Shown here: piece after piece, positions 1 to 57,132 of the stretch | Layout: every line of letters begins with the position of its first letter | Numbering within the stretch: position 1 is the first letter of the stretch | Virus record (IMG/VR): IMGVR_UViG_3300008116_000055 | Coordinates: 99,542 to 163,541 of that record | Origin: a virus | Direction: 5' to 3' (one strand) | Length of the DNA stretch: 64,000 bases | Notes under the pieces: generated by a model | What the model was told of the DNA's origin: nothing | The model's input: only the letters and a program-made list of their open reading frames with translations | Databases searched by the model: none | Position numbers and translations under genes: made by a program

Positions 1-838
1 CATTAATTGTTACTTTCTCTTCAGAACCAATGTTTACAGGACCCAAAAAAGAGTCTTGTCTCATTAGTCTTAAAACCGCTTCAACACATTCATCCACATA
101 TAAGAATGAACGAGTCTGTTGACCATCACCCCAAACTTCAATTTCTCCACCGTCTAACATTTCGGCAACTTTTCTACACATAGCTGCTGGTGCTTTTTCT
201 TTACCACCTTTCCACGTACCATATGGACCAAATATGTTATGAAATCTAGCAATTCGAACATCCAAACCGTGATTTCTGTGAAAAGCCAAGTACAACCTTT
301 CCGAAAAAAGTTTTTCCCAACCATATTCTGAATCAGGATTCGCGGGATATGCTGATGATTCTTCACAATTTGGGTTGTTAGGGTCTAATTGATTGTGTTC
401 AGGATACATACATGCCGATGATGAATAAAAAATCTTCTTAACTTTTGTCTTCACTGATTCATTTACAACATTTAAATTTATCATTGCAGAATTGTGCATA
501 ACATTCGCGTCATTTTCACCAGTGAAGATGTAACCAGCACCACCCATATCGGCAGCTAATTGATAAACCTCATCAAATGGGACCTCAGTTGAATATGGTT
601 GTTTGTAATAATTAAACGGTAATATCGTACCATTTAATTCTTCTAATCTCATTACTGATGATACGTTTTTTGGGTCCGTAAGGTCATATATTAAGAATTC
701 GTCACAAAAGTCTTTCTCATCAAAATATTCGTGTCTTTTTATATCAACTACTCTTACGTAGTTTCCTTCATTTTTTAATCTTTTTGCTAGGTGACCACCA
801 ATAAATCCGCCACCACCCAATACTAATACTCGTTTCAT
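1..838 (-). CDS. GDP-mannose 3,5-epimerase-like NAD-dependent sugar-nucleotide epimerase (partial; C-terminus beyond window start)
   Basis: Minus-strand frame open from ATG at 838-836 to position 1 (absent from the ORF track because it runs off the edge). N-terminal Rossmann motif VLVLGGGGFIGGHL, then ADMGGAGYI...SSSACMYPE and RFHNIFGPYGTWKGGKEKAPAAMCRK blocks characteristic of the GDP-mannose 3,5-epimerase branch of extended SDRs. Confidence 0.75.
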   Translation of the reverse strand, partial: MKRVLVLGGGGFIGGHLAKRLKNEGNYVRVVDIKRHEYFDEKDFCDEFLIYDLTDPKNVSSVMRLEELNGTILPFNYYKQPYSTEVPFDEVYQLAADMGGAGYIFTGENDANVMHNSAMINLNVVNESVKTKVKKIFYSSSACMYPEHNQLDPNNPNCEESSAYPANPDSEYGWEKLFSERLYLAFHRNHGLDVRIARFHNIFGPYGTWKGGKEKAPAAMCRKVAEMLDGGEIEVWGDGQQTRSFLYVDECVEAVLRLMRQDSFLGPVNIGSEEKVTIN

Positions 839-1452
839 TTTATTTTTTTAAAAAATCCCTCACCAAAATTATTACCCCACCAAAATTGTTCAACACAGGT
901 AAACCCATGATGTGTCATCCAATTGTTTATTTCATCAAAGTGTGGACAACCTTTATATAATTCGGCTCTGTTTATTTCTACAATAACGTAGTCAATGTTG
1001 ATTAATGTATTCACGGAACCTTTGAGAACCTCTAATTCAAAACCTTGAACATCGATATTCATCATGTTGTATTTTGAAAAATCGTAATTTAAATCATCCA
1101 ATCTATCCATTTCAACTTCTTCTACAGAATCAAAAACGATATGAGGAAATTGAACAGAATGTAATTTCGGTTCTAATATTGAGGATGACATACCTTTATT
1201 AAAGGATTCTACAAACATAGAAACTTTTCTCTTTTCATTACCTAACGCCAGTTTAACTAAAATTGCGTCATCATCTATTTTTTCTTTTAAGGTCTCAAAA
1301 TTAGACGATAGAGGTTCAAAGTATATTCTGTTTGAAATACCCAATTCCTTATAAACTTCATCTTCTTGACCAAAATGTGCACCAACGTGAATCACACCAT
1401 GGATATTAACATTATGATTAATCATAAATGTCTTTAGCTCTATATTATTCAT
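835..1452 (-). CDS. FkbM-family SAM-dependent methyltransferase
   Basis: 205 aa. VIHVGAHFGQE and IDVQGFELEVLKG motifs typical of Methyltransf_21/FkbM. 4-nt overlap with the downstream epimerase gene. Confidence 0.65.
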   Translation of the reverse strand: MNNIELKTFMINHNVNIHGVIHVGAHFGQEDEVYKELGISNRIYFEPLSSNFETLKEKIDDDAILVKLALGNEKRKVSMFVESFNKGMSSSILEPKLHSVQFPHIVFDSVEEVEMDRLDDLNYDFSKYNMMNIDVQGFELEVLKGSVNTLINIDYVIVEINRAELYKGCPHFDEINNWMTHHGFTCVEQFWWGNNFGEGFFKKIK

Positions 1453-2216
1453 TCTCTATCCTCTTTATATTTGTCTTTATTATACAATAAATCCCTGTGT
1501 TTTTCAAGTATTTTTGCTGCGTTTACGTAAACTAAATTATTATGTAATGATTGATTTTTTTGTCTAGTGGTCCCCCATCCAGGTTCGGAAATATAATCTA
1601 TCGTATATAAACCTGACACTTTTCCGAGTTCTTTGAATGCTCTCATGGACATATCCATATCATCATAATTTTGGGGTGAAAAATATTCGTCTAAAAAATT
1701 TAATTTGACCACGTCATTATAGTTGTACATTAGTGGACCTCTGTTACCATATTCTCTAGCATAAAAAATATCTCTTGATGAGTTATCTTTATGTGCAATA
1801 TCGATGTAATTTATTTGTTTTGTTTGTTCATTATAGATGTTATTGTGAGCAACAAAAGATGTTACAGCGAACACATCACTATATTTTATGAACGGTTCCA
1901 ACATCCTCTTATCAAAATCTTTTTCTGTGACAACCATATCATCTTGGATTAAGACCACATAATCATTTATAACAGACTTTAGACCAATATTATTTGCTTT
2001 GGTTTCAAAAACATTGTCGGCATACAGGTAATCAATTTTTTTATTACTAACTCTCTTTAAATTGTCACGAACAATACCTTCACTATTATCTGTACAACCA
2101 TCAAAAACTATTACAATCTGGTCATTCAGTTCTGATAAATTATTTACCAAGTTACTCACCACTTGGTTCATTAAGAATTCCTTGTTGTGAATTGTCAATA
2201 CTACTGATGTTTTCAT
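1449..2216 (-). CDS. family 2 glycosyltransferase
   Basis: Track ORF 1449..2246; first ATG at 2216 gives MKTSVVLTIHNKE, a GT2-like N-terminus, and a DxD-like VLIQDDM. ATGA overlap with the upstream gene. Confidence 0.65.
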   Translation of the reverse strand: MKTSVVLTIHNKEFLMNQVVSNLVNNLSELNDQIVIVFDGCTDNSEGIVRDNLKRVSNKKIDYLYADNVFETKANNIGLKSVINDYVVLIQDDMVVTEKDFDKRMLEPFIKYSDVFAVTSFVAHNNIYNEQTKQINYIDIAHKDNSSRDIFYAREYGNRGPLMYNYNDVVKLNFLDEYFSPQNYDDMDMSMRAFKELGKVSGLYTIDYISEPGWGTTRQKNQSLHNNLVYVNAAKILEKHRDLLYNKDKYKEDRE

Positions 2217-2974
2217 TTTAAAAGATATTTTGATAATTCTATACAATCACCTTTTCTATCAAACAGGTGGTCAACATAATTATACGTTTCAATCACGTTA
2301 TAATTTTCTTTGTGAAAAATCCAATTATTTGCCGTTTGCTCACAACAATGATAAATCTTCGAGTCTGTATCAGTCACATCTGAAATGTCTACCGATATCA
2401 TATCTTCCATAATTTTTTTTGCTTGGTGAATATTGTAATCCGCGGGCAACCCAAAAATACCTAAATTATAAATTTTAAAATCTAAATCATTTGTAACCTG
2501 TTTACATATTTTTATTTCACCCCATCTCGGGTCACCATTCCTAACGATTCTTTCATACTTCCAAACCATAATAGAATTATCATCAATTTGTGGTAATTCC
2601 GAATGAAAAAATAAATCATTATCGATTTTTACAGTGTACTCAGTTTCTGATTTTGCATAATTAATAAAATCATTTAAAACTGTAAAACTATAATTAAGAC
2701 TTTCATTGTATTTGGTAAGTTGTTCCGTGTAATCAATATAAATAATTCTGTCTTGGTCAATGTTATACTTGTTCATTTTTTCTTTCATACCCTCAACATC
2801 ATCAGTATAAAGATGTAAAATACTTTTTCTATTCTTATCAATAAATGAAGCATAAGATGCTGATGAATAATCAGATATAAACTCTTTATTTTTGTAGACA
2901 TCAAACGCCCATTTCCGACCGATTTGGGACATTTTATTTAAGTCATAATTATAATTTAATGCAATAAATTTCAT
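2213..2974 (-). CDS. hypothetical protein of the glycan cluster (possible glycosyltransferase)
   Basis: 253 aa ORF, overlap-coupled to neighbours in the same operon. No motif I can name. Confidence 0.45.
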   Translation of the reverse strand: MKFIALNYNYDLNKMSQIGRKWAFDVYKNKEFISDYSSASYASFIDKNRKSILHLYTDDVEGMKEKMNKYNIDQDRIIYIDYTEQLTKYNESLNYSFTVLNDFINYAKSETEYTVKIDNDLFFHSELPQIDDNSIMVWKYERIVRNGDPRWGEIKICKQVTNDLDFKIYNLGIFGLPADYNIHQAKKIMEDMISVDISDVTDTDSKIYHCCEQTANNWIFHKENYNVIETYNYVDHLFDRKGDCIELSKYLLK

Positions 2975-3645
2975 GGTATATATACGTTGTATTTTATTCT
3001 ATAATCGAGACAATAATCAAATTTTAAATTATGTTTCACAACCAAGTTAGTTAATATACTTTGGTCATTTCTATGGAATTGCCAATTTGGAAAATTCTCA
3101 CCAATTTGATTTGGTTCATTGTCAACTATCTGTTTAATACTACAATACTTAAAATAATCGTGAACAAATTCCATCATTTGTTTGGTTTTTTTAATGATGA
3201 TAAATCCTGCTTCCATCTGTGGTGTTTCATGAAACTTTTCTTCATCACAATCCATCAAGATAAAACAGTCTCTTTTTGTACATATTTTTTGAGGCCAACG
3301 ATTTCCATTCCAATTTGTAAAATAATAATCATTATCTTTCAAATAATTTGCAATCGTATTATAATCAACATCAACTAAATCACCGGCATCGGTATAAATT
3401 AATGCATCCCCATCTTCTAATTCATTCAAAATATCTAAAATAATTTTTGGTTTCCACAACCAAAATCCATCACCCGTTTCACAATCTAATATTTCTTTAT
3501 GGTTTTCATAAAAAATACCTTTCTTAACATCTTCAGATTTAAATCCTCGGATATCATTGAAACCACGTGAATTATAATATCCGATTAATTTTTGAACGGT
3601 GTTACTAAATTTATTGTTGGTGTAAAAAGATAGAACAATTTTCAT
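2971..3645 (-). CDS. putative DXD-type glycosyltransferase (capsule-synthesis-like)
   Basis: 224 aa. FWLWKPKIILDIL...LIYTDAGD resembles the W-KP ... Y-D-D signature of capsular polysaccharide synthesis / GT32-like transferases. Confidence 0.4.
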   Translation of the reverse strand: MKIVLSFYTNNKFSNTVQKLIGYYNSRGFNDIRGFKSEDVKKGIFYENHKEILDCETGDGFWLWKPKIILDILNELEDGDALIYTDAGDLVDVDYNTIANYLKDNDYYFTNWNGNRWPQKICTKRDCFILMDCDEEKFHETPQMEAGFIIIKKTKQMMEFVHDYFKYCSIKQIVDNEPNQIGENFPNWQFHRNDQSILTNLVVKHNLKFDYCLDYRIKYNVYIP

Positions 3646-3647
3646 TA

Positions 3648-4349
3648 TTAATGTATCCCCCGAACATTTACGTTTATTTCATATTCATTTATTAATGGAG
3701 AGAGTTCATTAGGGTATTCAGATAAATTCCATTTACCTCTAACTAAAGCCGTTGCTATATATGGATAAACAGAACTATCAAAATGATTCAACCCCCTTTT
3801 GTTTTCACCATCGTAATGATATAAACCTTTGATGTTGTTTTCTATCATAAAATTTCTATATGTTTCATTCTCTAACCACATATTATTTTTGGTACCTTTC
3901 ATGATTTTAATGTAATCATCTTTTTTCCAAATAGTTGGTTGCATAGAAAATATATCTTTATTGTCGGATTCTATTTCATATAAGGTCTCATAAATTTTTT
4001 TATCTTTAACAGACCCCGATTTTAACAATCTAATGAACGAATATTCTTGGTTATCATGTAAAAAATCGAGGTAATTAAAAATTTTATCATGACTGACATT
4101 GTTATAAAGAATAAAGTCTTCTTGTAAGTATATAAAATAGTCATATGGTATTGAAGATAAACACTTTAACCATGATTCATAATAAGGTTCTTGATTTTCA
4201 TATAAAAAACAAATTTGCTCGGGTATCATTACATCTGTAATAAAATACATCGGTAAGTTTGTGTACTTTTTTTGTTCTAACAAGAACATATCCAAAATAT
4301 CTGAACATTTTGAATTTGTATAAGTAACGTAACAAATTTTATTATCCAT
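3648..4349 (-). CDS. hypothetical protein of the glycan cluster
   Basis: 233 aa ORF in the coupled operon. Confidence 0.4.
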   Translation of the reverse strand: MDNKICYVTYTNSKCSDILDMFLLEQKKYTNLPMYFITDVMIPEQICFLYENQEPYYESWLKCLSSIPYDYFIYLQEDFILYNNVSHDKIFNYLDFLHDNQEYSFIRLLKSGSVKDKKIYETLYEIESDNKDIFSMQPTIWKKDDYIKIMKGTKNNMWLENETYRNFMIENNIKGLYHYDGENKRGLNHFDSSVYPYIATALVRGKWNLSEYPNELSPLINEYEINVNVRGIH

Positions 4350-5076
4350 AAGGTGTTAAATTTTTGTTGATATAAACCACATCCATTTCTGTGTTTGAAG
4401 ATTCTGGCGACTCGTCTATTGGTATAAACCTATTTAGTTTTTCATCTAGTTCAGATTTACTTGTAGAACCACGATATAATTCCTGTAACCCTACTTCGGT
4501 GGTTATTATTTTTACATCATTTAAATATTCTTTTAGAGAGTCTAATACGATATTTTCTGCACCTTGAACATCCATCCAAATCAAATCAACACTTTTAATA
4601 TCATTTTCTTTTAACCAATCACTAAGAACAATACAGTCAACCTCAGTTTCCTTTTGGGCCCACTGAGATGAACGCCAGTGGTTTGTTGTCTGTAATAAAG
4701 AACTGGCACCCACATTTCCATTATAAACTTCGTAAAATTTAGTTTTACCGTTGTAATTGTTTATTGCGTATTGGTAAACTTTTATGTTATTAATTTTCTC
4801 AACGTTCTTAACTGTAAATTCGTAGTTTTCTTTTACTGGTTCAAACGCATATATTTTAGCATGTGGAAACCATCTATTTAACTCTAAACTTTGGCAACCA
4901 TCTCTTGACCCAATATCTAATATTGTGTTGACATCATTAAAGTCAATTTTATCTTTTATAACATTAATCATTTTTGTTGTCCATAATGGACATCTACCAT
5001 TCAAATCGGTAAAGGCACCCCTATTTAATTCATCTTGAGTAAATGCGTCGTCAATAAATTTTGAATTATCTATCAT
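4342..5076 (-). CDS. FkbM-family SAM-dependent methyltransferase (second copy)
   Basis: 244 aa. DIGSRDGCQSLEL (SAM-binding) and MDVQGAENIVLDSL FkbM motif. Confidence 0.65.
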   Translation of the reverse strand: MIDNSKFIDDAFTQDELNRGAFTDLNGRCPLWTTKMINVIKDKIDFNDVNTILDIGSRDGCQSLELNRWFPHAKIYAFEPVKENYEFTVKNVEKINNIKVYQYAINNYNGKTKFYEVYNGNVGASSLLQTTNHWRSSQWAQKETEVDCIVLSDWLKENDIKSVDLIWMDVQGAENIVLDSLKEYLNDVKIITTEVGLQELYRGSTSKSELDEKLNRFIPIDESPESSNTEMDVVYINKNLTPYG

Positions 5077-5087
5077 TTTTATAATTT

Positions 5088-5678
5088 TTAAATCACCACC
5101 ATACTATAACATGGTGCGTCTTTATATGTGGACAAATTAATATTTCGTTTTAACCAAAAAATTTCATTATCATTACTTAATTCGCCACCCATAAAGTTTA
5201 TATTTTTATAGTTAAGTGATATTATATTTTCCGTGATTATTTTTTCCGAATACTCATCGTGTATGGTAGATACATTCCAAATATCAAACACCGTATCTAT
5301 TTCACCCTCCACAAAATAATCAACAAAATATTTTCCTTCATTATGCCAAGTCAAAAAATTTACACACTCTTTTTTAAATGTGGAAACTAATCTATTTGCA
5401 TTAGATGGTAGTAAATCACTTCTCCATTTAAGGACTCTGTTGTAACCTATTTCTTTGGCTTTCATTATTCCATTCAAAGTTGATATTTTTTGTAGTGCTA
5501 TATTTTGTACACCCCTATCGTGTGGAATACTGTTGAATAAGACAACATCATTAGTATCGTATTTTGATTCTTCACCTTGCCATGTTGACCAAATCAAATC
5601 ATAACCAGTCCAAGCGTTTTTTAATTCTTTAACGTAGTCTGAAGGTCCTTGTACTATGACACAAAAATCATTATTCAT
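5088..5678 (-). CDS. hypothetical protein of the glycan cluster
   Basis: 196 aa ORF. Confidence 0.4.
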   Translation of the reverse strand: MNNDFCVIVQGPSDYVKELKNAWTGYDLIWSTWQGEESKYDTNDVVLFNSIPHDRGVQNIALQKISTLNGIMKAKEIGYNRVLKWRSDLLPSNANRLVSTFKKECVNFLTWHNEGKYFVDYFVEGEIDTVFDIWNVSTIHDEYSEKIITENIISLNYKNINFMGGELSNDNEIFWLKRNINLSTYKDAPCYSMVVI

Positions 5679-5684
5679 ACTGAA

Positions 5685-6404
5685 TTAAAATTTTGATATG
5701 TGATTATGATATTGTGACCCTTCATACATGTATGGTCTAGTTATTTTATTATGTATGAATACATCTAATGCGGAACCAAAATCAATATAAGTGTTATTAC
5801 TATTATTTGTAAACATATGTTTTATGATAACAGCAGATGTTGGTCCACAACATACGATAAATAAAGTATCTTTATATTTTGAAGAAACATTGTATATTTT
5901 TTCTAAAAACGAATCTCTATGTTCTTCCCAATAGTTTACACAATCATTAGGGAACGGTACAAATTCTGATACACTAAATGGTATGTTTTTTAAATCACAA
6001 TTTTCATTACAAATTAAAACAACATCTCGATTTATATTTCTTATTCTTGATATATTTTCTTTGTAATTTGCGTTAATCCATAGGTTAGCAAATGTAATGT
6101 TTGATTTATTTTGTATTCTATCATATAAAAAATTATAGTCTCTAATACTATCAGTTTTGGAGGATATTGCAAAATAAAAATTTGGGTCGTTCAACCCTAT
6201 ACATTCATTTAAATCCACACCTAATTTGGTTTGTCCCCCACTCGAAAACCATTTATCGTTTTGATACGCTTGTGTATTCTTTTCTATCGGTGAATTATTC
6301 ATTAACATCACTTCACCATCGGCATATCTAACAAAAGAAAAGTTAGTTCGACTATCTATCTTTTCCCAAAACGAATTAAAATCTTCAATATACTTTTCAA
6401 TCAT
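5685..6404 (-). CDS. hypothetical protein of the glycan cluster
   Basis: 239 aa ORF, 8-nt overlap with the upstream gene. Confidence 0.4.
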   Translation of the reverse strand: MIEKYIEDFNSFWEKIDSRTNFSFVRYADGEVMLMNNSPIEKNTQAYQNDKWFSSGGQTKLGVDLNECIGLNDPNFYFAISSKTDSIRDYNFLYDRIQNKSNITFANLWINANYKENISRIRNINRDVVLICNENCDLKNIPFSVSEFVPFPNDCVNYWEEHRDSFLEKIYNVSSKYKDTLFIVCCGPTSAVIIKHMFTNNSNNTYIDFGSALDVFIHNKITRPYMYEGSQYHNHISKF

Positions 6405-7125
6405 TTAATATTGTCTTAAATCCTTTATTTACATACCCACGGTAAACTTCACCCATTAAATTCATATTTGAATGATTTACGGAAATTGCGTTGGAATCAG
6501 TTCCATGTTCCCATGCATATTCTGGTATACTACCCCACATTTCTCTATTTTCTTTAGGATGGGGAGGAACGTAAGTTCCGATATTTGCGTATTTCTGTAA
6601 TGTATATGAAAAGTGCATATCCTCACCAACTAATTTACTCTGATTGATTTCAGGTAATTCTCTCCAAAATATCGATAACCATTCTCTTTTAAAGAACCAC
6701 GAGTGACCAACAATGTCGACCTTTTCAATTTCTTCGTTAGGTTGGTCCCAACCGACTCTTGTTGCTGGCCAATAAGAGTTTTTTGTGTGAAATTTTACAC
6801 CGATAGTTCCTAATAAACCTTCTTGAATTTTCATGGTGTTTAGACAGTTTTCTAACCATAGTTTACCCGGTATTGTGTCATCATCAAAAACACAAATATA
6901 TTCTGTGTTGGCATTTAAAGCAAATGCAAATCTTGCCCACACACCTAAATTACTATTACAAGATGCGTGAATTAAATCTTTGGTTAGTCCCTCATCAAAT
7001 TGAGAACCAGAATTTTGCCAAAATAAAATTGATTCGGGTTGGACACTTTGATTTCTAATTGATTCCAATTGTTTTTGGAGAACATGTGGTCTTTTATACC
7101 CATTTAATATTACCGTTATACTCAT
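6397..7125 (-). CDS. glycosyltransferase family 2-like protein
   Basis: 242 aa. MSITVILNGYKRPHVLQKQLESI N-terminus and VFDDDTIP DxD-type motif. Confidence 0.5.
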   Translation of the reverse strand: MSITVILNGYKRPHVLQKQLESIRNQSVQPESILFWQNSGSQFDEGLTKDLIHASCNSNLGVWARFAFALNANTEYICVFDDDTIPGKLWLENCLNTMKIQEGLLGTIGVKFHTKNSYWPATRVGWDQPNEEIEKVDIVGHSWFFKREWLSIFWRELPEINQSKLVGEDMHFSYTLQKYANIGTYVPPHPKENREMWGSIPEYAWEHGTDSNAISVNHSNMNLMGEVYRGYVNKGFKTILND

Positions 7126-8114
7126 ACAATTTTTCTAAATATTTCAATGATTCTTTCACAAGAATTACCATCACCAAAAGGACAATCATATTCTGTTTGG
7201 AAATCGTTAATAATATCGTAAAAAATACCTTCTAAGTCAATGGGTTTTTTACATATAAAAGACGTTTTACCCAAGGACTCAGGTCTCTCAGTTTTTTCTC
7301 TACATACAATAACTTTCTTATTTAGGAACGACGCCTCTTCTTGAACACCCCCACTATCTGAAATTAGTAATTTACAGGATTTGAATTCCTCAATAAATTT
7401 ATCATGGGTTAATGGTTCAATAACATCAACATGTGTCAATATATGTTTGTGTTTTATGACGTTTGGGTTTGGGTGTATTGGAAGAATGAATTTTAATTCA
7501 GGATTATTCTTTGCTAATCGATTGATAACATCAAACCACTCCGACATCATCTCATGATTCTCTCTTCTATGTAAAGTGATTAAGACTTTATTTTCGTATG
7601 TAATATTTTCTTTATTAAGATTATCTAATACGGTATTGCCAACTACAAAATTTTTACCCTGAACTTTTTCATTTTCTAAGTTCATCTTGTTACTTTCTGT
7701 TGGGCAAAGATTATAGTTTGAAATTCTACTAATTAACTGCCGATACATTTCTTCGGGGTAAGGGTGATTGTAGTCATATGTCCGTAATCCCGCTTCTAAA
7801 TGAATCACTTCTTTTTTATGGTGTAATCCTATTAGGGATAATGAAAGAGCGGTTGCGGTGTCCCCTTGGATAAGTATATGTGTAACCCCTTCCAAAAATT
7901 CTTTTTTAAAATTTAAAAATACGGATGACATAATACTATCCAATCTATTTTCACACGTATCATCAATGGATAATTTATAATCAAAATCACCCAATACAAT
8001 ATCTTTGTGTTGGGTAACATATAAAATTTTATGGGGAATACTTTCCCCACACATTTCTATTAATTTTTTTATTTTAATATACTCAGGTCTTGTGCCGTAA
8101 CAAAATAATATCAT
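7122..8114 (-). CDS. wecB: UDP-N-acetylglucosamine 2-epimerase
   Basis: 330 aa. MILFCYGTRPEYIKI start, HLEAGLRTYD, GDSGGVQEEA blocks typical of non-hydrolysing UDP-GlcNAc 2-epimerases. Confidence 0.8.
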   Translation of the reverse strand: MILFCYGTRPEYIKIKKLIEMCGESIPHKILYVTQHKDIVLGDFDYKLSIDDTCENRLDSIMSSVFLNFKKEFLEGVTHILIQGDTATALSLSLIGLHHKKEVIHLEAGLRTYDYNHPYPEEMYRQLISRISNYNLCPTESNKMNLENEKVQGKNFVVGNTVLDNLNKENITYENKVLITLHRRENHEMMSEWFDVINRLAKNNPELKFILPIHPNPNVIKHKHILTHVDVIEPLTHDKFIEEFKSCKLLISDSGGVQEEASFLNKKVIVCREKTERPESLGKTSFICKKPIDLEGIFYDIINDFQTEYDCPFGDGNSCERIIEIFRKIV

Positions 8115-8932
8115 ATATAAGTTGAAATGATTTCTAAATTTTTTAAAGTGTTAGTTTCTAAGAAATCAATTAATTCATCACCTGATAACCTATTAAACCA
8201 TTCTTCTAAACTTGCACCATAATTTTGTGTCGTTATTACTTCCAAACCTAAACATTTTGCCTCAACAACCAGTCTACAAAAAGTTTCTCTTGCTATCGGG
8301 AAAAACACAATACCTTTACATTTGGCCATATTACTTAAAAATTCAACTCTGTCTTTAGATTCTTTAAGAATATGGACCGGTAATTTATTTTCAGAACAAT
8401 ACTTCAGACTACCTTGGGTGTTCTTTATCCAATTATTTGTATAGTAAACAGAATATTTGTCGTTTTTAACATTGTTGGATTTATTTAAATTCCTCAATAA
8501 TTCTAAGTCCTCATTTGACCATATCGAACTATTCAGATTTATAAAATTAGCAACAACATCGTTTTTAAGATAAACGTTCATGTGGTCGGTTGTTTGAACA
8601 AATACCGCTTTTGCATTCCGGTAAAGAGAATAGTTGGTTCTTTCCTCAATCGGAATTATGTTGTCGGTATATCTCCATGGGTGTCTACTTGCACATATTT
8701 TATAATCGTTTTCAATAATGACGTAGTTCAAATTTTGTATTTGATTAACCAAGTTTGGGTTCATCAAAGAAATATTTGATATAATATACAGGGCGTTGTA
8801 ATCAAATGACTTGACTTGGTTTGAATATTCAAACTCAAGATTAAATCTATCAATTAAAACTTGATTCACCCATTCAGAACCACCGTGAGGTACTTCTTTA
8901 ATGGTAAAATCCGATATAAGTATTTTCCTCAT
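8111..8932 (-). CDS. hypothetical protein of the glycan cluster
   Basis: 273 aa ORF, ATGA-coupled. Confidence 0.4.
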   Translation of the reverse strand: MRKILISDFTIKEVPHGGSEWVNQVLIDRFNLEFEYSNQVKSFDYNALYIISNISLMNPNLVNQIQNLNYVIIENDYKICASRHPWRYTDNIIPIEERTNYSLYRNAKAVFVQTTDHMNVYLKNDVVANFINLNSSIWSNEDLELLRNLNKSNNVKNDKYSVYYTNNWIKNTQGSLKYCSENKLPVHILKESKDRVEFLSNMAKCKGIVFFPIARETFCRLVVEAKCLGLEVITTQNYGASLEEWFNRLSGDELIDFLETNTLKNLEIISTYI

Positions 8933-9651
8933 ATAACTTGATAATTTTCTTTTAACATGCTGTCCATGTAATTGAATGGTAAATTAAAATAATGTTCACC
9001 GAATTTATGTTGTTTATTGAACGATGACAATCTCTTTGCTCTTGAAATGTAAATGTTCTTCACGTAGTCTTTACCCAAGAATTTATAGTGAAGAAGTTTT
9101 ATTTCCCGCTCATCCGAAAATTTACCATCAACAGAATTAAAACTGTGACCACCAATGCCGTATTTTATATCTAAATCAGGATGAAAAATTATATTTTTAC
9201 ACATTGGTTCATACGTTTGTGAACCTGTTTTAATTTTTGTTGTAATGAATTCACCGTCGTATATTGGAAATTCAGTACTAACCATGTCGTGACCGTCTAT
9301 TCTTGGGACGGTTATACCCATTTCTTTGTACTCTTGAAGTTTATCCATAAGATTTTCATGGTATATAAACTCATCACAGTCACAAACTATAACCCAATCA
9401 ACACCCTGACCTCTACTTCTTTTTTTATACTCTTCGGATTTAATGTTTACGTAATTAATTTCATTTATTTCATTACCACTATCCCATTTAATAACCTCAA
9501 CTTTTGGGTACCTCTTATAAATCTCATCAGAGGAGTCCGTTGACATATTATCGTATATGAATATTTTTTCACAGATTGTACTATAGTAATCCAATGTGAA
9601 TGGTAATATTTTTTCTTCATTCCATGACAGTATATGTGCGTGTATCTTCAT
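8929..9651 (-). CDS. putative glycosyltransferase (GT2/GT92-like fold)
   Basis: 240 aa. HILSWNEEKILPFTLDYY...IYDNMSTDSS resembles GT-A fold nucleotide-sugar transferases. Confidence 0.45.
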   Translation of the reverse strand: MKIHAHILSWNEEKILPFTLDYYSTICEKIFIYDNMSTDSSDEIYKRYPKVEVIKWDSGNEINEINYVNIKSEEYKKRSRGQGVDWVIVCDCDEFIYHENLMDKLQEYKEMGITVPRIDGHDMVSTEFPIYDGEFITTKIKTGSQTYEPMCKNIIFHPDLDIKYGIGGHSFNSVDGKFSDEREIKLLHYKFLGKDYVKNIYISRAKRLSSFNKQHKFGEHYFNLPFNYMDSMLKENYQVI

Positions 9652-9652
9652 T

Positions 9653-10432
9653 TTAAAATATGTTTTTCCAAAGTGTTAATATCTCTTCGTTACTTAATTT
9701 AGAAACTTCATTCATAGTCTCTTCATTACCATAAAACTCTGTACCGGTTAAATAACATTCATCTTTAACCAAACAAGCAACCTCACCCTTTGATGAGTGA
9801 TATACCTTACCAATCATATCGTACATTTCTTGTTTATTGGTGGTGTGACCGTAATGAATTACTCTTGGATTCATTAAAGGTTTTACCAATTTGTCAAAAT
9901 AGTTTTGGTCACCGATGTGACCGAACAAATAGATTTTTTCACACCTGTCTTTTAATGCTCTTTGTATTGACACATGGGTCTGTTTTCTGTCTTCAATTGT
10001 ACCAATAATTCCTGCAATATTTCTTACCAGCTCTTTATTTGAAATAATTAAATTTTCTTTGATGTTTGGTATTATTACATAATCACCCCTGTAATCCGAG
10101 TGATATTTTCGATGCTCTTCATGTAAAAACACGCACAGGTCCCAATACTGTTTAATTTTACCAACAGGGAACCACCATTTTTCATGACAAGACAAAATAA
10201 CTTTTTTAACAGGTGGTCTTTCCTGTAGTTGTAAAAAATGGGTAATTACAATATCATCAGATTCATACTTTAAATCTTTTTCAATGTTCCCTGATTTACA
10301 TTTGTCTAAATGGTAATTCTGATTACCGTAAAATGTGCAATCAATACCATTTTCATTTAAGAAATTTGTTAAGTTTATAAAAAAAGTGGTAGAACCACCT
10401 TTTTCTGTAAATCCCGATACAATTTTTATCAT
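9653..10432 (-). CDS. hypothetical protein, possibly GT-B-type glycosyltransferase fragment
   Basis: 259 aa. MIKIVSGFTEKGGSTTF N-terminus reminiscent of GT1/GT4 N-domains. Weak. Confidence 0.3.
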   Translation of the reverse strand: MIKIVSGFTEKGGSTTFFINLTNFLNENGIDCTFYGNQNYHLDKCKSGNIEKDLKYESDDIVITHFLQLQERPPVKKVILSCHEKWWFPVGKIKQYWDLCVFLHEEHRKYHSDYRGDYVIIPNIKENLIISNKELVRNIAGIIGTIEDRKQTHVSIQRALKDRCEKIYLFGHIGDQNYFDKLVKPLMNPRVIHYGHTTNKQEMYDMIGKVYHSSKGEVACLVKDECYLTGTEFYGNEETMNEVSKLSNEEILTLWKNIF

Positions 10433-11886
10433 CTTAATTGTTTGATATTTTTTCTAATTTCAGGTGAGTTTATGTACTGACCTAAGACTTGTTTTAATTC
10501 AACATCAACCTTTTCAAATTTTGATGCCATATCAATCATTACCACACTGTTTGTGTCAATGAATGTTTTACGTTTTTTAAGTAAAGTTTTCAACGCAAAA
10601 TCTAAGTTATAAATTGATGTTTCTAAATTAATATCAAACCAATCAATCATTTTTAAATTTGTAGATGTAGTGGCAAAAAAGTCACTAATACTACCAAAAT
10701 TGTTTGGAAAGTGTCCGTGTAAAATATTGAAAAAAGATGATTTGTTTTTAAAAATTAAATTGAACTGTTCGTTGTTTTGAACTATATCCAATCCATTTGA
10801 AAAAATTGTTCGGTCGTTTTCTAATACTGTAGGAAAGACGCACCCAAAAGTATTTTTTTCACTCTTAAATATTGAATACATACTTGAGAAAACGTCGTTC
10901 AATACGGTAACAGTATCATTACTGAAAAATAACAAATCTGTTTTTGATTCCATAAACGATTCATCCCATTTCAGTACTGATAAGTTTTTATTTAATGTAT
11001 CAAAAAAACCCTCGTAAATTTTAATATTTTCAGATTCAAATTCTCTAATATTGTCTATATTGGTATCCGTCGAGATGAGTGAAATCTGTAAACTATCAAA
11101 CACTGGTAATTTTTTTATGTTTTCAAAAAACTGAATTAAATTTTCATTATCGTTTGATGTTTGAACTATTAAATTAAATTTATCTTTAAACTGTTTTGGT
11201 TTGGTTATGTCATAATCAATTTTTGGTGTTATATTAATTGGTAGGTTCTCTTTAAATTTTTCAATGTAAAATTCCCTATTCTTTTCCCAAGAATCATTGG
11301 TCATTCCGATTGATTTGTGAGTGATTCTTATGTTGTATATAACACCGATGTTTACCTCACTTAAGTGATTGCTAGTACAGAATACCATATCATAAAAATG
11401 AAAACCCGGTACTGACTCATCAAAAGTGTGTTTTATTCTGTTTTTGTGGATTCCAATGAATAAACCATCCACTAAACAAACTTCGTGAATTGAATTTGGG
11501 ATTCCATTTGCATATCTCGATTCCCATTTTTTACCCTCATTTTCATGATTAACAATACCAACCATTTTGGTATTATCTGTCCACCACCTACCACTCTCAT
11601 GAATATTGGTTGTACCGGCAACACCGAGAATCCCGTAGTCAGATTCTTCAAAATGTTTGACTAATTTTCTACCCCACGAAGTCGTATTAAAGTAAATGTC
11701 ATCATGACAAAGTACGACAATATCATGAATCGACTCTTGAATAATTTCATTGTAAGTTTGTGAAAGACTTTTTTCACCATTGTTTACTTTTTCAATAACT
11801 TGAACTTTGGGGTGTCCACAAGTTTTTTTTAAATATTCTTGAAATTTTGGGTTGGACTCTCTTGTACTGTAACCTATTGTAATCAT
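10429..11886 (-). CDS. multidomain glycosyltransferase-like protein (first gene of the glycan operon)
   Basis: 485 aa. N-terminal MITIGYSTRESNP...VVLCHDDIYF resembles a GT2 domain. The C-terminal half is unassigned. Confidence 0.45.
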   Translation of the reverse strand: MITIGYSTRESNPKFQEYLKKTCGHPKVQVIEKVNNGEKSLSQTYNEIIQESIHDIVVLCHDDIYFNTTSWGRKLVKHFEESDYGILGVAGTTNIHESGRWWTDNTKMVGIVNHENEGKKWESRYANGIPNSIHEVCLVDGLFIGIHKNRIKHTFDESVPGFHFYDMVFCTSNHLSEVNIGVIYNIRITHKSIGMTNDSWEKNREFYIEKFKENLPINITPKIDYDITKPKQFKDKFNLIVQTSNDNENLIQFFENIKKLPVFDSLQISLISTDTNIDNIREFESENIKIYEGFFDTLNKNLSVLKWDESFMESKTDLLFFSNDTVTVLNDVFSSMYSIFKSEKNTFGCVFPTVLENDRTIFSNGLDIVQNNEQFNLIFKNKSSFFNILHGHFPNNFGSISDFFATTSTNLKMIDWFDINLETSIYNLDFALKTLLKKRKTFIDTNSVVMIDMASKFEKVDVELKQVLGQYINSPEIRKNIKQLR

Positions 11887-11935
11887 TTTTTTGTTTTAAA
11901 ATATTGATGATAATATAAGAAATAAAATTCACAAC

Positions 11936-12136
11936 TTAAAATTTGGAACCGTTTGGTGCAAGACCGTTGTGATTATCAATTTGTTTTCTAAAATCTTCTC
12001 TAGTGTTATATAGGTCAAGAGCTCGGTTTACTAATTTTTGTAGATTGATTGAACCATCTACACTTTTTATCTTAAATCTTTTATAAACATCATCTATGAT
12101 GTTAACGCTGGTTAGTTTTGTTTGTTGTTTAGGCAT
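11936..12136 (-). CDS. putative ribbon-helix-helix DNA-binding protein
   Basis: Track ORF 11936..12175 starts at TTG. First ATG at 12136 gives MPKQQTKLTSVNIIDDVYKRFK...VNRALDLY, an RHH (Arc/CopG)-like pattern. Confidence 0.35.
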   Translation of the reverse strand: MPKQQTKLTSVNIIDDVYKRFKIKSVDGSINLQKLVNRALDLYNTREDFRKQIDNHNGLAPNGSKF

Positions 12137-12180
12137 AATATAAGTATATAAATTTATATATATTATAAAAGACAAAAAAT

Positions 12181-12207
12181 ATCGGACAATTTATTAGACT
12201 GTCCGAT
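12181..12207 (-). terminator. inverted repeat ATCGGACA-N11-TGTCCGAT followed (minus sense) by a T-run; terminator or operator
   Basis: 8-bp perfect inverted repeat read directly, between the stop of 12213..12398 and the RHH gene. Confidence 0.3.
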
Positions 12208-12212
12208 ACAAT

Positions 12213-12398
12213 TTATTGTCCTTCTGTGTTTTCTTCGTTAGTTTGATTGTTAATCTCCTCAACCTTTTTTATGATTTGGTCAAGTTGTTGTTCCATAATT
12301 GTAATCTCCTGTGGAGGTGTTGAACCACCTTCGGTTAGTTGAATGTTTACCGTTTGATTACTAACAGGTTGGTTTCTTTTTTTACATCCGCATCCCAT
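12213..12398 (-). CDS. hypothetical small protein
   Basis: 61 aa ORF divergent from the methyltransferase gene. Confidence 0.3.
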   Translation of the reverse strand: MGCGCKKRNQPVSNQTVNIQLTEGGSTPPQEITIMEQQLDQIIKKVEEINNQTNEENTEGQ

Positions 12399-12485
12399 GA
12401 TTTTAAGTTTTTTTATAAATATTTTGGTTTATTGTTTTTTATTCGTTATCTTTTGTAATAATAATAAATAGAAAACAATTTGTCA

Positions 12486-13334
12486 ATGGAAATGAATAAA
12501 ATTTATCAGGGTGACTGCTTAGAACTGTTTAAGGAGTTAAATGACGGTACTGTAGACCTCTTTGTTACGAGTCCACCGTACAATGTCGGTATTAGTTATG
12601 ATGTGCACAAAGACGATGCTCCGATGGATGAGTATTTTGAGTGGTGTAAGAAATGGTTATCCGAAGTTTACCGTACATTAAAAGATGATGGTAGAATTGC
12701 CTTGAATATACCATATGAAATAAACGTTAGAGAAAGAGGTGGGAGAATTTTCTTAGTATCTGAATATTGGCAGATGATGAAAGAGATTGGTTTTGGATTC
12801 TTTGGTGTTGTGGACTTAGAGGAGGATTCTCCACACCGTTCTAAAACAACCGCTTGGGGTTCTTGGATGTCACCATCATCACCATACATATACAATCCAA
12901 AAGAATGTGTAATTCTTGCATATAAGAAAGATTACAAAAAGAAAGAAAAAGGTATATCTCAATGGTCTTATAATCAGATTGAGGTCGAAAACGAGGAAGG
13001 TAATTTTAAAAACAAAAGGGTTTATTCAGATAAAGACAAAAACGAATTCATGGAATTAGTCTTTGGTCAATGGAAATACTTCAACGACACAAAATCTTTA
13101 ACTAAAGCCACATTCTCCATGGACATCCCAATGAAAGCAATAAAAATACTTTCCTATCAAAATGACCTGATTGTTGATTGTTTTTCAGGAAGTGGAACCA
13201 CCGCTTTGTCAGCTAAGAAGCTGAATAGAAATTATATTGGTTTTGAGTTATCAGAATCTTACACAAAGATATCTCAACAGAGATTGATTGATTATGATAA
13301 CCAAAAGAAACAACTGGTAATGTTTGAAGAATAA
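12486..13334 (+). CDS. DNA methyltransferase, beta-class (N4-cytosine or N6-adenine), orphan
   Basis: Track ORF from TTG at 12480; first ATG 12486. DLFVTSPPYNVGISYD (motif IV, SPPY) precedes IVDCFSGSGTTALSA (motif I, FxGxG). This circularly permuted order defines beta-class amino-MTases. No adjacent nuclease gene. Confidence 0.8.
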   Translation: MEMNKIYQGDCLELFKELNDGTVDLFVTSPPYNVGISYDVHKDDAPMDEYFEWCKKWLSEVYRTLKDDGRIALNIPYEINVRERGGRIFLVSEYWQMMKEIGFGFFGVVDLEEDSPHRSKTTAWGSWMSPSSPYIYNPKECVILAYKKDYKKKEKGISQWSYNQIEVENEEGNFKNKRVYSDKDKNEFMELVFGQWKYFNDTKSLTKATFSMDIPMKAIKILSYQNDLIVDCFSGSGTTALSAKKLNRNYIGFELSESYTKISQQRLIDYDNQKKQLVMFEE

Positions 13335-14112: not shown

Positions 14113-14322
14113 ATGTCAAATAAAGAAAAGAAATACATCACGGATTTTTTTGTAATAAGAAAGAAATACCATTGGTTTCTTTTACCAACTCCCATATTTT
14201 ACTACCGTAAAGACACGTTTTTTGAAACCGGTGCAACCTCACCAAGCTGGGGTTTGGCTTTGAGATTCTTAATTTTTATGGTCGGTATTCAGATACAGAA
14301 AAACATATATTATAAAAAATGA
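14113..14322 (+). CDS. hypothetical small hydrophobic protein
   Basis: 69 aa ORF, 4-nt overlap with the GS gene. Confidence 0.3.
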   Translation: MSNKEKKYITDFFVIRKKYHWFLLPTPIFYYRKDTFFETGATSPSWGLALRFLIFMVGIQIQKNIYYKK

Positions 14323-15443
14323 AAACAAAAGTAGAATACGTATGGCTTGATGGGTATTCCCCTGAGCCAAATCTCAGAAGTAAAATAAAAATTGTGGACC
14401 TACCGGCACCATTTGAATTGAAACACATCCCCAATTGGGGGTTTGACGGAAGCTCAACTAAACAAGCGGAAGGTAACTTTTCAGATTGTTATCTTAAGCC
14501 AGTAAAATTATATCATACAAATAGTTCACTTGATACAGTATATGTATTATGTGAGGTTTTAGATGGTAATAATGAAATTCATCCATCAAATCATAGAGCA
14601 AAAGTAGGTGAGGAAGATGTAAATTTTTGGGTTGGATTTGAACAGGAATATTTTATTCGTTCTTCACATAATAATCCAATTCTTGGATTTGAAAGAAATG
14701 GTATCATTGACGGTCAAGGAATTTATTATTGTGGTGTAGGTGGACATATTGTTGGTCGAAATATTTCTGATGAACATTTGAACATGTGTTTAAAATATGA
14801 CATCAATGTGGAGGGAACCAATTCAGAGGTTGCATTAGGTCAATGGGAATACCAAATTTTTGCAACAGGTAAAATTGCCGCTTCTGATGATTTATGGATG
14901 AGTAGATATTTTTTACATAAAATTGCTGAGAAATATGGTCGTTCTATTGAGTTACATCCCAAACCGATGACCCACGGAGAATGGAACGGTTCAGGTTTAC
15001 ATACAAATTTCTCAAATCAAAAAATGAGAGAAGAGGGTGGTGAACAATACTTCAATGCAATTTTTAGGTCTTTTGAATCAAGAACACAAGAACATATTGA
15101 CTCTTATGGTTCTGATAACCATTTGAGATTAACAGGTCATTTTGAGACACAATCTATTGATAAATTTAGTTGGGGTGTCTCAGACAGAGGTGCATCTATC
15201 CGTGTACCAAAATCCGTTGGTGAGACATGGAAGGGTTATCTTGAAGACAGGAGACCAGCATCACACGCGGACCCATATAAAATCGTTAAAGTGATTAGTG
15301 ATAGTTTATCATTAGCCGAAGAATTAAATAATGTTCATCACATGATGAATGTTGAAATAGACACCGAAAAAATTGTAAATAAATACGGTACACTTTCAGG
15401 GGAGGAACTCTTGGAAAGTTATCGAAAAGATGAAGAAGAATAA
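14319..15443 (+). CDS. glutamine synthetase, type II (eukaryote-like)
   Basis: 374 aa. YVWLDG...LRSK N-terminal beta-grasp, NWGFDGSSTKQAEGNFSDCYL, FEQEY and GQWEYQI metal-binding blocks, HPKP...NGSGLHTNFS, NHLRLTGHFETQSIDKFSWGVSDRGASIRVP. Essentially all GSII catalytic signatures are present. Confidence 0.85.
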   Translation: MKTKVEYVWLDGYSPEPNLRSKIKIVDLPAPFELKHIPNWGFDGSSTKQAEGNFSDCYLKPVKLYHTNSSLDTVYVLCEVLDGNNEIHPSNHRAKVGEEDVNFWVGFEQEYFIRSSHNNPILGFERNGIIDGQGIYYCGVGGHIVGRNISDEHLNMCLKYDINVEGTNSEVALGQWEYQIFATGKIAASDDLWMSRYFLHKIAEKYGRSIELHPKPMTHGEWNGSGLHTNFSNQKMREEGGEQYFNAIFRSFESRTQEHIDSYGSDNHLRLTGHFETQSIDKFSWGVSDRGASIRVPKSVGETWKGYLEDRRPASHADPYKIVKVISDSLSLAEELNNVHHMMNVEIDTEKIVNKYGTLSGEELLESYRKDEEE

Positions 15444-16380: not shown

Positions 16381-16777
16381 AAAGAAACCTGATATTGTTG
16401 TTTGGGATGAAACAAATGGGTACGACGCTAATAGAAAGCATTATCCTACCAGTATCGGTTCGCCAAAATTTGAATTACCTAATGTGGGTCTCGTAAAAAA
16501 AGAGTCCTCAAAAAAAATGATTGATGTCTTTAATCGTCAAAGAGAAGAAATCATTCAATCAATAGAAAAACTTCAAAGAGAGTATGTGGATTCAATAATG
16601 GTTTGGGAATCAAAAATTTCTTTTGACCCAATTGTTGGTGAAACATATTACTTATATAATTTTAATGGTGTAAATACATTATCATTATTATCACCAAAAG
16701 ATTGGAATCGGGGTGACGATTTTATTGGTGCTTTTACATTAAATTCAGATAGAAAATGGGTTAGAAATGAAAGGTAA
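16373..16777 (+). CDS. hypothetical protein
   Basis: 134 aa ORF. Confidence 0.4.
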   Translation: MNKKKPDIVVWDETNGYDANRKHYPTSIGSPKFELPNVGLVKKESSKKMIDVFNRQREEIIQSIEKLQREYVDSIMVWESKISFDPIVGETYYLYNFNGVNTLSLLSPKDWNRGDDFIGAFTLNSDRKWVRNER

Positions 16778-18706: not shown

Positions 18707-18709
18707 ACT

Positions 18710-56128: not shown

Positions 56129-56147
56129 ATGTATATACGTATATATG

Positions 56148-56966: not shown

Positions 56967-56972
56967 TCCCCC

Positions 56973-57087: not shown

Positions 57088-57132
57088 CGGTGGATTTATT
57101 GTTACAACATCAATTGTCTAAACAACCTTTCC

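Follow-up and report, generated by a model that had tools for sequence, protein, structure and literature searches.

The closest described analogues of the locus reported here are the "LPS gene clusters" of cyanomyophages, for example that of S-SSM7, and the machinery for glycosylation that giant viruses encode. The locus is a minus-strand operon of 15 enzyme genes at one end of a 64,000-nucleotide stretch of viral DNA (IMG/VR record IMGVR_UViG_3300008116_000055, positions 99,542 to 163,541), referred to below as the window, whose numbering applies unless a contig is named. The cyanomyophage clusters (S-SSM7 SSSM7_252-265, P-SSM2, S-SM2, S-SCSM2R) have in common with the operon a length of at least 10 kb, a location on one strand of a large phage genome, and a set of epimerases, several glycosyltransferases (GTs) and a methyltransferase. 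The S-SSM7 cluster spans approximately 12 kb and encodes epimerases, UDP-glucose dehydrogenase, an "NAD synthetase", a methyltransferase and four to five GTs. Phage glycan clusters have been noticed since 2010 and have remained unexplained; they were reported that year as perhaps functional, perhaps mere stuffer DNA, the latter being one published view (PMC3037559), and the 22 such genes of S-SCSM2R were read as serving cell-surface or DNA modification (PMC12801897). An earlier note on this DNA, made from the letters alone, called a pathway of this size rare in bacterial viruses, a claim that is too strong given the clusters of at least 10 kb in S-SSM7, P-SSM2 and S-SCSM2R (PMC3037559, PMC12801897) and the at least 596 viral stretches matching the GDP-mannose 3,5-epimerase (GME) of the operon.

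The GME gene, op15, is the only operon gene seen to be in common with the cyanomyophages. Homologues 55–58% identical to its product were found in 37 cultured phage or marine-virus records, 32 of them named cyanophages, whereas the first operon gene, op01, was without a match there. The operon also has a WecB-type epimerase gene and two FkbM methyltransferase genes and lacks GT10, GT11 and UDP-glucose dehydrogenase genes. The cyanomyophage clusters do share GT10, GT11, UDP-glucose dehydrogenase and NAD-synthase-like genes with sister cassettes of the operon in other uncultured phages, and both the clusters and this cassette family lie near phoH or nucleotide-metabolism genes. They differ in host, cyanobacterial as opposed to inferred Bacteroidota, and in phage lineage. 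The operon is the Bacteroidota-phage counterpart of the cyanophage clusters, with its own conserved core of four GTs and a cassette-like variable remainder.

Glycosylation by giant viruses takes place in the cytoplasm, without host endoplasmic reticulum, Golgi or a lipid carrier, and yields methylated glycans. The chlorovirus PBCV-1 (A064R) and Mimivirus/Megavirus encode their own sugar-nucleotide enzymes, multi-domain soluble GT-As, sugar methyltransferases and WecB-like epimerases (PMC9614988). Virus-encoded soluble GTs and sugar-nucleotide enzymes are likewise present in the operon, but the giant viruses have eukaryotic hosts and virion glycans that were determined experimentally, and their likeness to op01 is one of fold, not of demonstrated orthology. 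Among phages, mycobacteriophages (Che8 and others) encode soluble GT-As that act in the cytoplasm on proteins of the capsid and tail tube, as cited in PMC12619734. A structural comparison matched op01 to the Che8 GT (E = 1e-7). Freeman et al. (2023) reportedly found one to four GT genes beside structural genes in mycobacteriophages, without nucleotide-sugar or methyltransferase genes; in contrast to that pattern, the operon has 15 genes and does not adjoin structural genes. The seroconversion modules of temperate phages (gtrABC, oac, wzy/iap) are also phage genes that alter a surface glycan, but they comprise one to three genes, encode integral membrane proteins and belong to temperate phages, traits that were not encountered here.

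Moraphages are large freshwater Bacteroidota phages with predicted Flavobacteriia hosts that carry glutamine synthetase, glutaredoxin, dUTPase, PhoH and sigma factor genes, along with four core glycosyltransferase orthogroups whose role was left open (PMC12619734). That paper makes no mention of the operon, its epimerases, or a pattern of conserved core and variable remainder (PMC12619734). The four orthogroups also count against the rarity claimed in the earlier note. A GlnII-like gene lies in the window and other moraphage markers occur in the window phage or its relatives; judging from its genes, the phage may belong to or near the moraphage lineage.

Organization and enzymes of the operon

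The locus is very probably a functional glycan-synthesis operon of the phage, and its glycan assembly line is self-contained and made up of soluble proteins only. It occupies positions 1–12136 of the minus strand as one tightly coupled transcription unit, in which a small ORF is followed by 15 enzyme genes, numbered here op01 to op15 in the order of transcription. Fourteen minus-strand ORFs are listed in full within 835–11886, and the fifteenth begins at 838 and continues past the window start; an identical metagenomic contig (L001, 10615–11676) supplied its full product of 353 aa. L001, a 156.9-kb JGI contig, and L002, an 82.6-kb ENA contig, were both found via the exact op14 sequence and are independent assemblies in which the operon is 100% identical at the protein level and the flanks are in common. 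With the start of op13 placed at ATG 2216, following the ENA gene call, the enzyme genes overlap at 10 of their 14 junctions (eight 4-nt ATGA overlaps and two 8-nt overlaps) and are separated at the remaining four by gaps of 1, 2, 6 and, at the largest, 11 nt. All operon ORFs are intact and translationally coupled, and their G+C content of 28–33% is similar to the 30–35% elsewhere in the window. The tightly coupled minus-strand glycan operon described in the earlier note was thereby borne out, while its count of 13 to 14 genes was slightly low, 15 enzyme genes and a 66-aa ORF being counted here.

The 66-aa ORF (11936–12136, minus strand) stands at the head of the operon, 49 nt upstream of op01. 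Its translation has a ribbon-helix-helix (RHH)-like pattern, recognized by eye, which makes it a candidate regulator; family profile scans, including PHROGs, gave no match. Homologues with 35–50% identity were found at approximately 14 other viral loci, 4–7 kb upstream of GME, and in those contigs the homologue lies inside a GME-containing cassette with no detectable op01. The ORF may be a cassette-linked regulator. A terminator-like hairpin (12-bp stem and T-run, 12179–12209, minus strand), the strongest such site within 1–13000, ends the upstream gene and sets the 5' boundary of the operon unit. As the hairpin lies just before the 66-aa ORF, the transcription unit most likely runs from 12136 to beyond position 1. 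No exact copy of the Bacteroidota −7 motif TAnnTTTG was found in the operon leader. The motif occurs 20–40 nt upstream of many window genes, with weak overall enrichment (107 observed vs. 88.6 ± 10 shuffled). Scans of the window for tRNAs and Rfam families gave no match.

Two epimerases and two methyltransferases indicate what kind of glycan might be made. The op15 gene, whose 5' part lies in the window (1–838, minus strand) and whose start codon (ATG, 838) lies in a 4-nt overlap with the stop codon of op14, encodes a GME that matches the PDB entries of that enzyme at E = 1e-87 (2c59) to 1e-84 (8sg0), the next SDR family, UXS, following at 1e-21. All of the residues that line up with the Ser/Cys/Tyr/Lys/Lys catalytic set of the plant enzyme are kept, and the motifs SSSAC, YGWEK and GGKEKAP align with SSAC, YGLEK and GGREKAP of 2c59; that set comprises the Ser/Tyr/Lys triad and the Cys/Lys acid/base pair reported in the Arabidopsis structure papers. 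The enzyme would convert host GDP-mannose to GDP-L-galactose (or GDP-L-gulose). The op05 product (7122–8114, minus strand, 330 aa) is a probable non-hydrolysing UDP-GlcNAc 2-epimerase of the WecB type, with 204 bits to Pfam Epimerase_2, E = 1e-43 to PDB 6vlb, and 209.9 bits to TIGR00236 (wecB), just under the cut-off of 210.15, compared to just 37.7 bits to NeuC. It is approximately 40 aa shorter than a typical WecB and is predicted to turn UDP-GlcNAc into UDP-ManNAc. The products of op09 (4342–5076, minus strand, 244 aa) and op14 (835–1452, minus strand, 205 aa) are S-adenosylmethionine-dependent methyltransferases of the FkbM family, with 71.8 and 61.6 bits, respectively, to Methyltransf_21 and 89.5 and 61.7 bits to TIGR01444; they would O-methylate the oligosaccharide, twice in all. 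These four assignments agree with those proposed earlier.

Among the remaining 11 enzyme genes, five encode well-supported GTs, two encode weakly supported ones (op04, op07) and four encode proteins without a family (op08, op10, op11, op12). The "at least six" transferases of the earlier note are thus plausible, with only five of them firm. The Pfam threshold was passed by op01 (Glyco_tranf_2_5), op03 (Glyco_tranf_2_4), and op06 and op13 (both Glycos_transf_2). The op01 product (10429–11886, minus strand, 485 aa) is a two-domain GT-A protein with an invariant H61-D62-D63 in its N-terminal Glyco_tranf_2_5 domain; the C-terminal domain is also GT-A-like, and the DXD position is not conserved there. 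Structures were predicted for op01 and op02. Among viral proteins, op01 was structurally best matched by a two-domain GT of an uncultured Caudovirales phage, by GTs from phages of Gordonia and Mycobacterium (Che8), and by the multi-GT proteins that giant viruses encode; its fold resembles the last of these and mimivirus R699. The op02 product (9653–10432, minus strand, 259 aa), which is without a Pfam model, is a compact GT-B enzyme, GT4-like and of the retaining type. The next two genes belong to the core described below and have counterparts in four related contigs (L022, L058, L166, L167): op03 (8929–9651, minus strand, 240 aa) encodes a GT-A of the Glyco_tranf_2_4 family (PF13704, 56.8 bits), 68–71% identical in those contigs, and op04 (8111–8932, minus strand, 273 aa) encodes a probable compact GT-B enzyme with a weak match to Glycos_transf_1, the GT1 C-terminal part (17.8 bits, below threshold), collinear and 60–73% identical in the same contigs.

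Further downstream, op06 (6397–7125, minus strand, 242 aa) encodes a GT2 enzyme (29.2 bits at a cut-off of 23.3) that is 60–64% identical in L022, L040, L058 and L166, and op13 (1449–2216, minus strand, 255 aa from ATG 2216, a start that gives a 4-nt overlap with op12) encodes another (47.9 bits). The op07 product (5685–6404, minus strand, 239 aa) is a possible GT of the GT-D fold with weak support, scoring 21.9 bits to the Pfam GT-D-like model (cut-off 27) and 21.6 bits to NCBIfam GT-D_rel (cut-off 75). The four proteins without a family all carry conserved acidic motifs and gave no significant Pfam/PHROGs-type family match. Homologues of op08 (5088–5678, minus strand, 196 aa) are 52–55% identical in L022 and L058; those of op10 (3648–4349, minus strand, 233 aa), with an invariant Q-E-D-F, are 48–56% identical in L022, L058 and L166; and those of op12 (2213–2974, minus strand, 253 aa), with an invariant D118-N-D120, are 53–83% identical in L005, L022, L058 and L166. 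The op11 product (2971–3645, minus strand, 224 aa), conserved in L005, L058 and L009, has the motifs WLWKP and Y-x-D-x-G-D and, judged from motifs alone, may be a DXD-type transferase. Profile searches of the PDB with op04, op10 and op12 (4–5 homologues each) returned noise only, a PHROGs scan of op01–op04, op07, op08 and op10–op12 returned nothing credible, and hhalign comparisons of op10 with op08, op11 with op12, and op04 with op02 detected no relationship.

As predicted from these homologies, 7–11 soluble GTs would assemble a hetero-oligosaccharide, of which the op01–op04 block probably makes a conserved inner part and the downstream genes probably a variable outer part. Membrane steps are missing from the operon. 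All 14 complete proteins lack a transmembrane helix (the highest 19-residue Kyte-Doolittle mean was 1.51), and Pfam and hydrophobicity scans of the operon revealed no priming transferase of the WecA, WbaP or PglC type and no flippase, polymerase, ligase or ABC transporter.

Conservation and the cassette family

The two close relatives used as references for nonsynonymous to synonymous substitution ratios (dN/dS), L005 (GME 95% identical) and L003 (op01 86% identical), have the same operon junctions and phage genes on either side. The dN/dS values of the operon genes were 0.035–0.077, with op12 at 0.077 and op11 at 0.076, vs. 0.031–0.069 for the flanking phage genes. Purifying selection on the operon is as strong as that on its phage neighbours.

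In more distant relatives, the first four genes are conserved as a block. They are collinear and of equal sizes in L166 (a 76-kb JGI contig) and L167 (a 202-kb ENA contig), with identities of 42–48% for op01, 62–79% for op02, 68–69% for op03 and 60–73% for op04. L166 also retains op06, op07, op10, op12 and GME in order, and in L022 and L058, 13 of the 15 are present but reordered. The op01 family has approximately 2,729 members and the op02 family 760, and all listed members are metagenomic, on contigs of at most 386 kb. Members of the op01, op02 and GME clusters are metagenomic "hypothetical protein" entries, plus one contig of a probably mis-binned Verrucomicrobiae metagenome-assembled genome. 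A tblastn search with op01 against 50,697 cultured-phage records gave no match, and op01–op04 have no counterpart in cultured phages.

The loci used to describe the wider family were the best 80 of the at least 596 stretches matched in the GME scan of IMG/VR. An op01-like gene lies 3.8–11 kb upstream of GME on the same strand at 30 distinct loci among them, and FkbM genes were present in approximately 30 of the fetched loci. The 276 proteins encoded by 31 cassettes fell into 79 families, 39 of which were singletons. The common frame consists of op01, FkbM and GME, and the middle is highly variable, with GT11, GT10, GT2, UDP-glucose dehydrogenase, NAD-synthase-like and GDP-mannose dehydratase-like families the other frequent members. 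The cassettes of relatives also sit among nucleotide-metabolism genes (glutaredoxin, thioredoxin, dUTPase, exonuclease, PhoH), and L166 has a Peptidase_S74 tail-fibre-type gene approximately 7 kb upstream of its cassette. The cassette family occurs in hundreds to thousands of uncultured phage genomes. Its spread, together with purifying selection like that on neighbouring genes and a deeply conserved four-GT core found on phage-sized metagenomic contigs only, argues against the stuffer view. In the variable part of the L167 cassette (16590–18708), genes for a KAS III-like enzyme, a short-chain dehydrogenase and a hexapeptide acyltransferase lie beside GT11, GT10 and FkbM genes; this gene set suggests acylated sugars in the glycan of that phage.

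The op15 GME is 70–76% identical to enzymes of Flavobacterium, Chryseobacterium, Kaistella and Chitinophagaceae. The earlier note had proposed the phylogeny of the epimerases as a means of telling a phage-specific clade from a recent host capture, and for GME the result was neither. A neighbour-joining tree of 152 sequences mixes viral and Bacteroidota GMEs, which contradicts a phage-specific clade, and the nearest bacterial sequence is only 74–76% identical, which contradicts recent capture of op15 from a host. GME has probably been exchanged several times between phages and bacteria, with no recent exchange for this phage.

Bacterial GME loci are organized differently. No op01 was found near GME in any of 80 Bacteroidota and other bacterial GME loci, and the run of same-strand genes around GME has a median of 3 genes in bacteria vs. 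20 in viruses. A protein with at least two predicted transmembrane segments, and up to 9–10, is encoded in 20 of 74 bacterial runs. Transmembrane proteins of the viral runs are few, mostly of 482–703 aa (seven of them ~650–700 aa) plus two shorter ones, and are located further along the GME gene run; by eye, none of the transmembrane proteins listed from 79 related viral runs resembled a flippase, polymerase or transporter. A conserved protein of ~650–700 aa is encoded 5–8 kb downstream of GME in L006, L008, L036, L044, L046, L049 and L070 (e.g., L008 15715–17817). It has a low-complexity N-terminal part, two to three hydrophobic segments near the C-terminus and an "LPTG.LPDG.PN" motif, is without a PHROG match, and may be a tape-measure or ejection protein.

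Nucleotide-sugar enzymes and several GTs, as in an O-antigen or capsule locus, are present in the operon; the priming, export and chromosomal flanks of such a locus were not found. An ordinary chromosomal O-antigen locus, which the earlier note had named as a finding that would overturn its view, is contradicted by phage genes, and an absence of housekeeping genes, in the flanks. The operon has no phosphoglycosyltransferase, Wzx, Wzy or ABC transporter, and its core GT families were seen only on contigs below 400 kb.

Candidate acceptors of the glycan

Virion glycosylation and host-surface remodelling, both raised in the earlier note, are the two leading hypotheses for the role of the operon. 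The acceptor would most likely be phage-made and glycosylated in the cytoplasm, since membrane steps are lacking here and in nearly all sister cassettes and the core GTs were found only on phage-sized metagenomic contigs, so that they do not appear to have been recruited from host O-antigen loci. The most plausible acceptors would be virion proteins (capsid, tail, fibres), a situation akin to that of chloroviruses, mimiviruses and mycobacteriophages. Taken as a whole, with a virion protein as the acceptor, this account is put forward tentatively, as somewhat short of probable. Several points weigh against it. No structural genes lie within ~10 kb of the window ends, and the location of the cassette among nucleotide-metabolism genes, here and in relatives, would suit an early, host- or DNA-directed role too. 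O-antigen GTs are normally soluble or peripheral as well, so the missing transmembrane helices are also compatible with the extension of a host-primed, undecaprenyl-linked acceptor. Finally, four of the 15 proteins are without a fold assignment, and the donor sugars are assigned from homology alone.

The main alternative is that the operon remodels the host envelope. Soluble GTs would extend a host-primed undecaprenyl-PP- or lipid A-core-linked acceptor at the inner membrane face, and the methylated L-Gal/ManNAc glycan would be exported by a host flippase, polymerase and ligase or by a general O-glycosylation system of the host. The outcome could be a block to superinfection, the avoidance of progeny adsorption to debris, or evasion of grazers. 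Methylated sugars are typical of Bacteroidota O-glycans. The gene content is that of an O-antigen or capsule locus minus its membrane steps, GME is of the Bacteroidota type (70–76% identity, intermixed in the tree), the cassette sits among early/middle-type nucleotide-metabolism genes rather than structural ones, and published readings of the analogous cyanophage clusters favour a role at the cell surface (PMC12801897), the one usually proposed for them. This alternative is possible, if on the unlikely side. A priming phosphoglycosyltransferase, flippase, polymerase, ligase and ABC transporter are all lacking from the operon, and by eye none was recognized among the transmembrane proteins listed from the 79 related viral runs. 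Bacterial chromosomal homologues of op01–op04 were not detected at the 80 bacterial GME loci or among the listed family members, and such a distribution is unexpected for enzymes that must dock onto O-unit intermediates of the host. Lysogeny genes were also not seen among the ORFs scanned. Specifically, the seroconversion through lysogeny that the earlier note had considered is unlikely in its classical form, because the operon encodes no GtrA/GtrB/Gtr-type protein, Oac-type acyltransferase or Wzy membrane protein and no integrase was noticed among the ORFs scanned, a part of those in the window.

An unlikely alternative is a free or lipid-linked product outside the virion, envelope and DNA, or a glycosylated non-structural protein, that would act in host takeover or as a decoy. 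Such a product would fit the solubility of all components; positive evidence for it is lacking, and the high turnover of the cassettes (79 families in 31 cassettes, 39 of them singletons) is more typical of glycans exposed at a surface or to defences.

Glycosylation of DNA is less probable still. The GTs would then glycosylate a modified pyrimidine as protection from restriction, as in the T-even phages, the arabinosylation of RB69 and DLP3, or clusters linked to 5mYOX and a C5-methyltransferase (C5-MT). The cassette adjoins DNA methylase genes (N6_N4 at 12480–13334 and Dam past the epimerase gene) and nucleotide-metabolism genes, and known DNA-glycan clusters can include epimerases (bioRxiv 10.1101/2023.12.21.572611). 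Described clusters of this kind have 1–3 GTs that build chains of at most approximately three sugars, compared to 7–11 GTs and two O-methyltransferases in the operon. They are also linked either to C5-MT and 5mYOX or to a homologue of ThyA in which N177D and L143D/E have been substituted. The ThyA homologues that act as hydroxymethylases or 5hoC synthases have Asp/Glu and Asp at the L143 and N177 positions, respectively (PMC13326640), whereas the sole ThyA of the window is canonical, with Leu (VLPPCH) and Asn (PFNIA) where the E. coli enzyme has L143 and N177. The window also yielded neither a dioxygenase of the Tet/JBP type nor a C5-MT. A non-functional or non-phage region (a chromosomal O-antigen locus beside a prophage, a chimeric assembly, or stuffer DNA in decay as raised for the cyanophage clusters; Sullivan et al. 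2010, PMC3037559) is contradicted by two identical assemblies, the L003 and L005 junctions, dN/dS of 0.035–0.077, intact ORFs and the lack of housekeeping flanks, and its probability is practically negligible.

If the glycan is placed on the virion, a broader and rather doubtful extension is that large phages in water, with hosts from two phyla or more (Bacteroidota, cyanobacteria), coat their virions with a self-made methylated glycan of the L-galactose/fucose type, the Bacteroidota lineage doing so with the op01–op04 core and a swappable, variable outer cassette. Such a variable-cassette virion coat would be the phage equivalent of serotypes, an arms race over virion glycans without an antibody-bearing host. 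As an operon without membrane export steps, the locus provides a concrete case for asking whether aquatic tailed phages glycosylate their own particles, in the manner of giant viruses, or repaint the host, and the outcome in either case has consequences for the host range of phages, their decay, and grazing in aquatic environments. New enzymes are also in prospect, including a putative compact GT4, a putative double GT-A and a predicted bacterial-type GME for the rare sugar L-galactose.

Phage context and neighbouring genes

Phage genes lie on both flanks of the operon, with no housekeeping genes alongside, and the phage setting described in the earlier note is supported within the window by DNA methylases, thymidylate synthase, UvrD, and PG-binding and glucosaminidase genes. 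Past op15, L001 carries convergent glutaredoxin, thioredoxin, AAA, Dam, Hc1 and Amidase_2 genes, and small early-type phage genes follow past the other window end. Virion structural genes were absent from the stretch readable on contigs, approximately 10 kb from either window end. No integrase was noticed among the scanned ORFs or flank annotations, a scan that left out many small and several >150-aa window ORFs. A megablast search of window positions 1–12000 and 20000–44000 against the 50,697 cultured-phage records gave no match. Contigs with the same proteins reach 194–288 kb, and those that carry the operon extend to 157–288 kb. Identical proteins of this phage were found in 92–108 blocks of a public assembly collection, 14 of them blocks with contigs of 0.2–1 Mb, which indicates that the phage, or a near-clonal population of it, has been very widely sampled.

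The host is most likely a member of the Bacteroidota, as suggested by the TTTG...TAnnTTTG promoter pattern of that phylum in many intergenic regions and by the 70–76% identity of GME to Bacteroidota enzymes. The upstream side of the operon also encodes a PcfJ-like protein and the UvrD helicase. The best cultured relatives of UvrD are in 179-kb Bacteroides phages (36% identity, phage DAC), followed by Chryseobacterium phage MA9V-3 (33%), and of the 134 records matched, Flavobacterium phages make up the largest group.

Upstream of the operon, on the opposite strand, lies the N6_N4 DNA methylase gene (12480–13334, Pfam), followed on the plus strand by the gene for the GlnII-like glutamine synthetase (14319–15443; NF041605 323 bits, below the equivalog cut-off of 500), a HAD phosphatase gene (16767–17381), which adjoins thyA 5 kb from the operon, and thyA itself (17381–18706, 441 aa, TIGR03284 305 bits). 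Compared to the 264-aa E. coli enzyme, the window ThyA has four insertions (approximately 43, 38, 35 and 48 aa) and a smaller gap, and the PCH motif is kept. The C-terminal domain of the HAD protein corresponds, with 47–51% identity, to a gene of its own immediately upstream of the op01-like gene in cassettes of other phages (L008 1943–2329, L036 1926–2264, L040 638–976, L067 4545–4883); in three of these four it abuts or overlaps the op01-like gene by 0–4 nt.

Three genes of the cell-wall hydrolase type were found in or near the window, encoding a PG_binding_1 protein with a weak FrpC-like match (27082–28410, plus strand), a glucosaminidase (37047–37613, plus strand) and, beyond op15, an Amidase_2 protein (L001 19907–20512). 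A second, two-gene sugar-related module (45661–47080, plus strand) lies 34 kb from the operon. It consists of a metallophosphoesterase gene, weakly LpxH/YfcE-like (45661–46356, plus strand, Metallophos 46.9 bits), which overlaps by 14 nt the stand-alone GT2 gene (46343–47080, plus strand, Glycos_transf_2 78.5 bits) that had already been recognized in the earlier note. Accessory genes include those for a DenV-like pyrimidine-dimer glycosylase (25249–25716, minus strand) and an SPFH/Band-7 protein (31578–32429, plus strand). A class I/II PLP aminotransferase gene (38073–39182, plus strand, PHROG 5879) and a gene with a weak 2OG-Fe(II) oxygenase match (42630–43502, plus strand, 24 bits, below threshold) were also identified.

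Gene strand and GC skew switch at approximately 56 kb. The small minus-strand genes at 56000–64000, which encode SprT-like, bPH_2 and DUF1281_C proteins, have a G+C content of 36–39% compared to 28–35% elsewhere. A repeat of approximately 65–80 nt with 89% identity stands upstream of three consecutive minus-strand genes in this region (62154–62234, 62542–62622, 63299–63379), with weaker copies at 59481–59561 and 61253–61294. It contains TTTG...TAtcTTTG, the Bacteroidota-type −33/−7 promoter pattern, and probably marks a family of early promoters. A shorter motif, ATTTAGTTTGGC, recurs upstream of 56966 and 63850.

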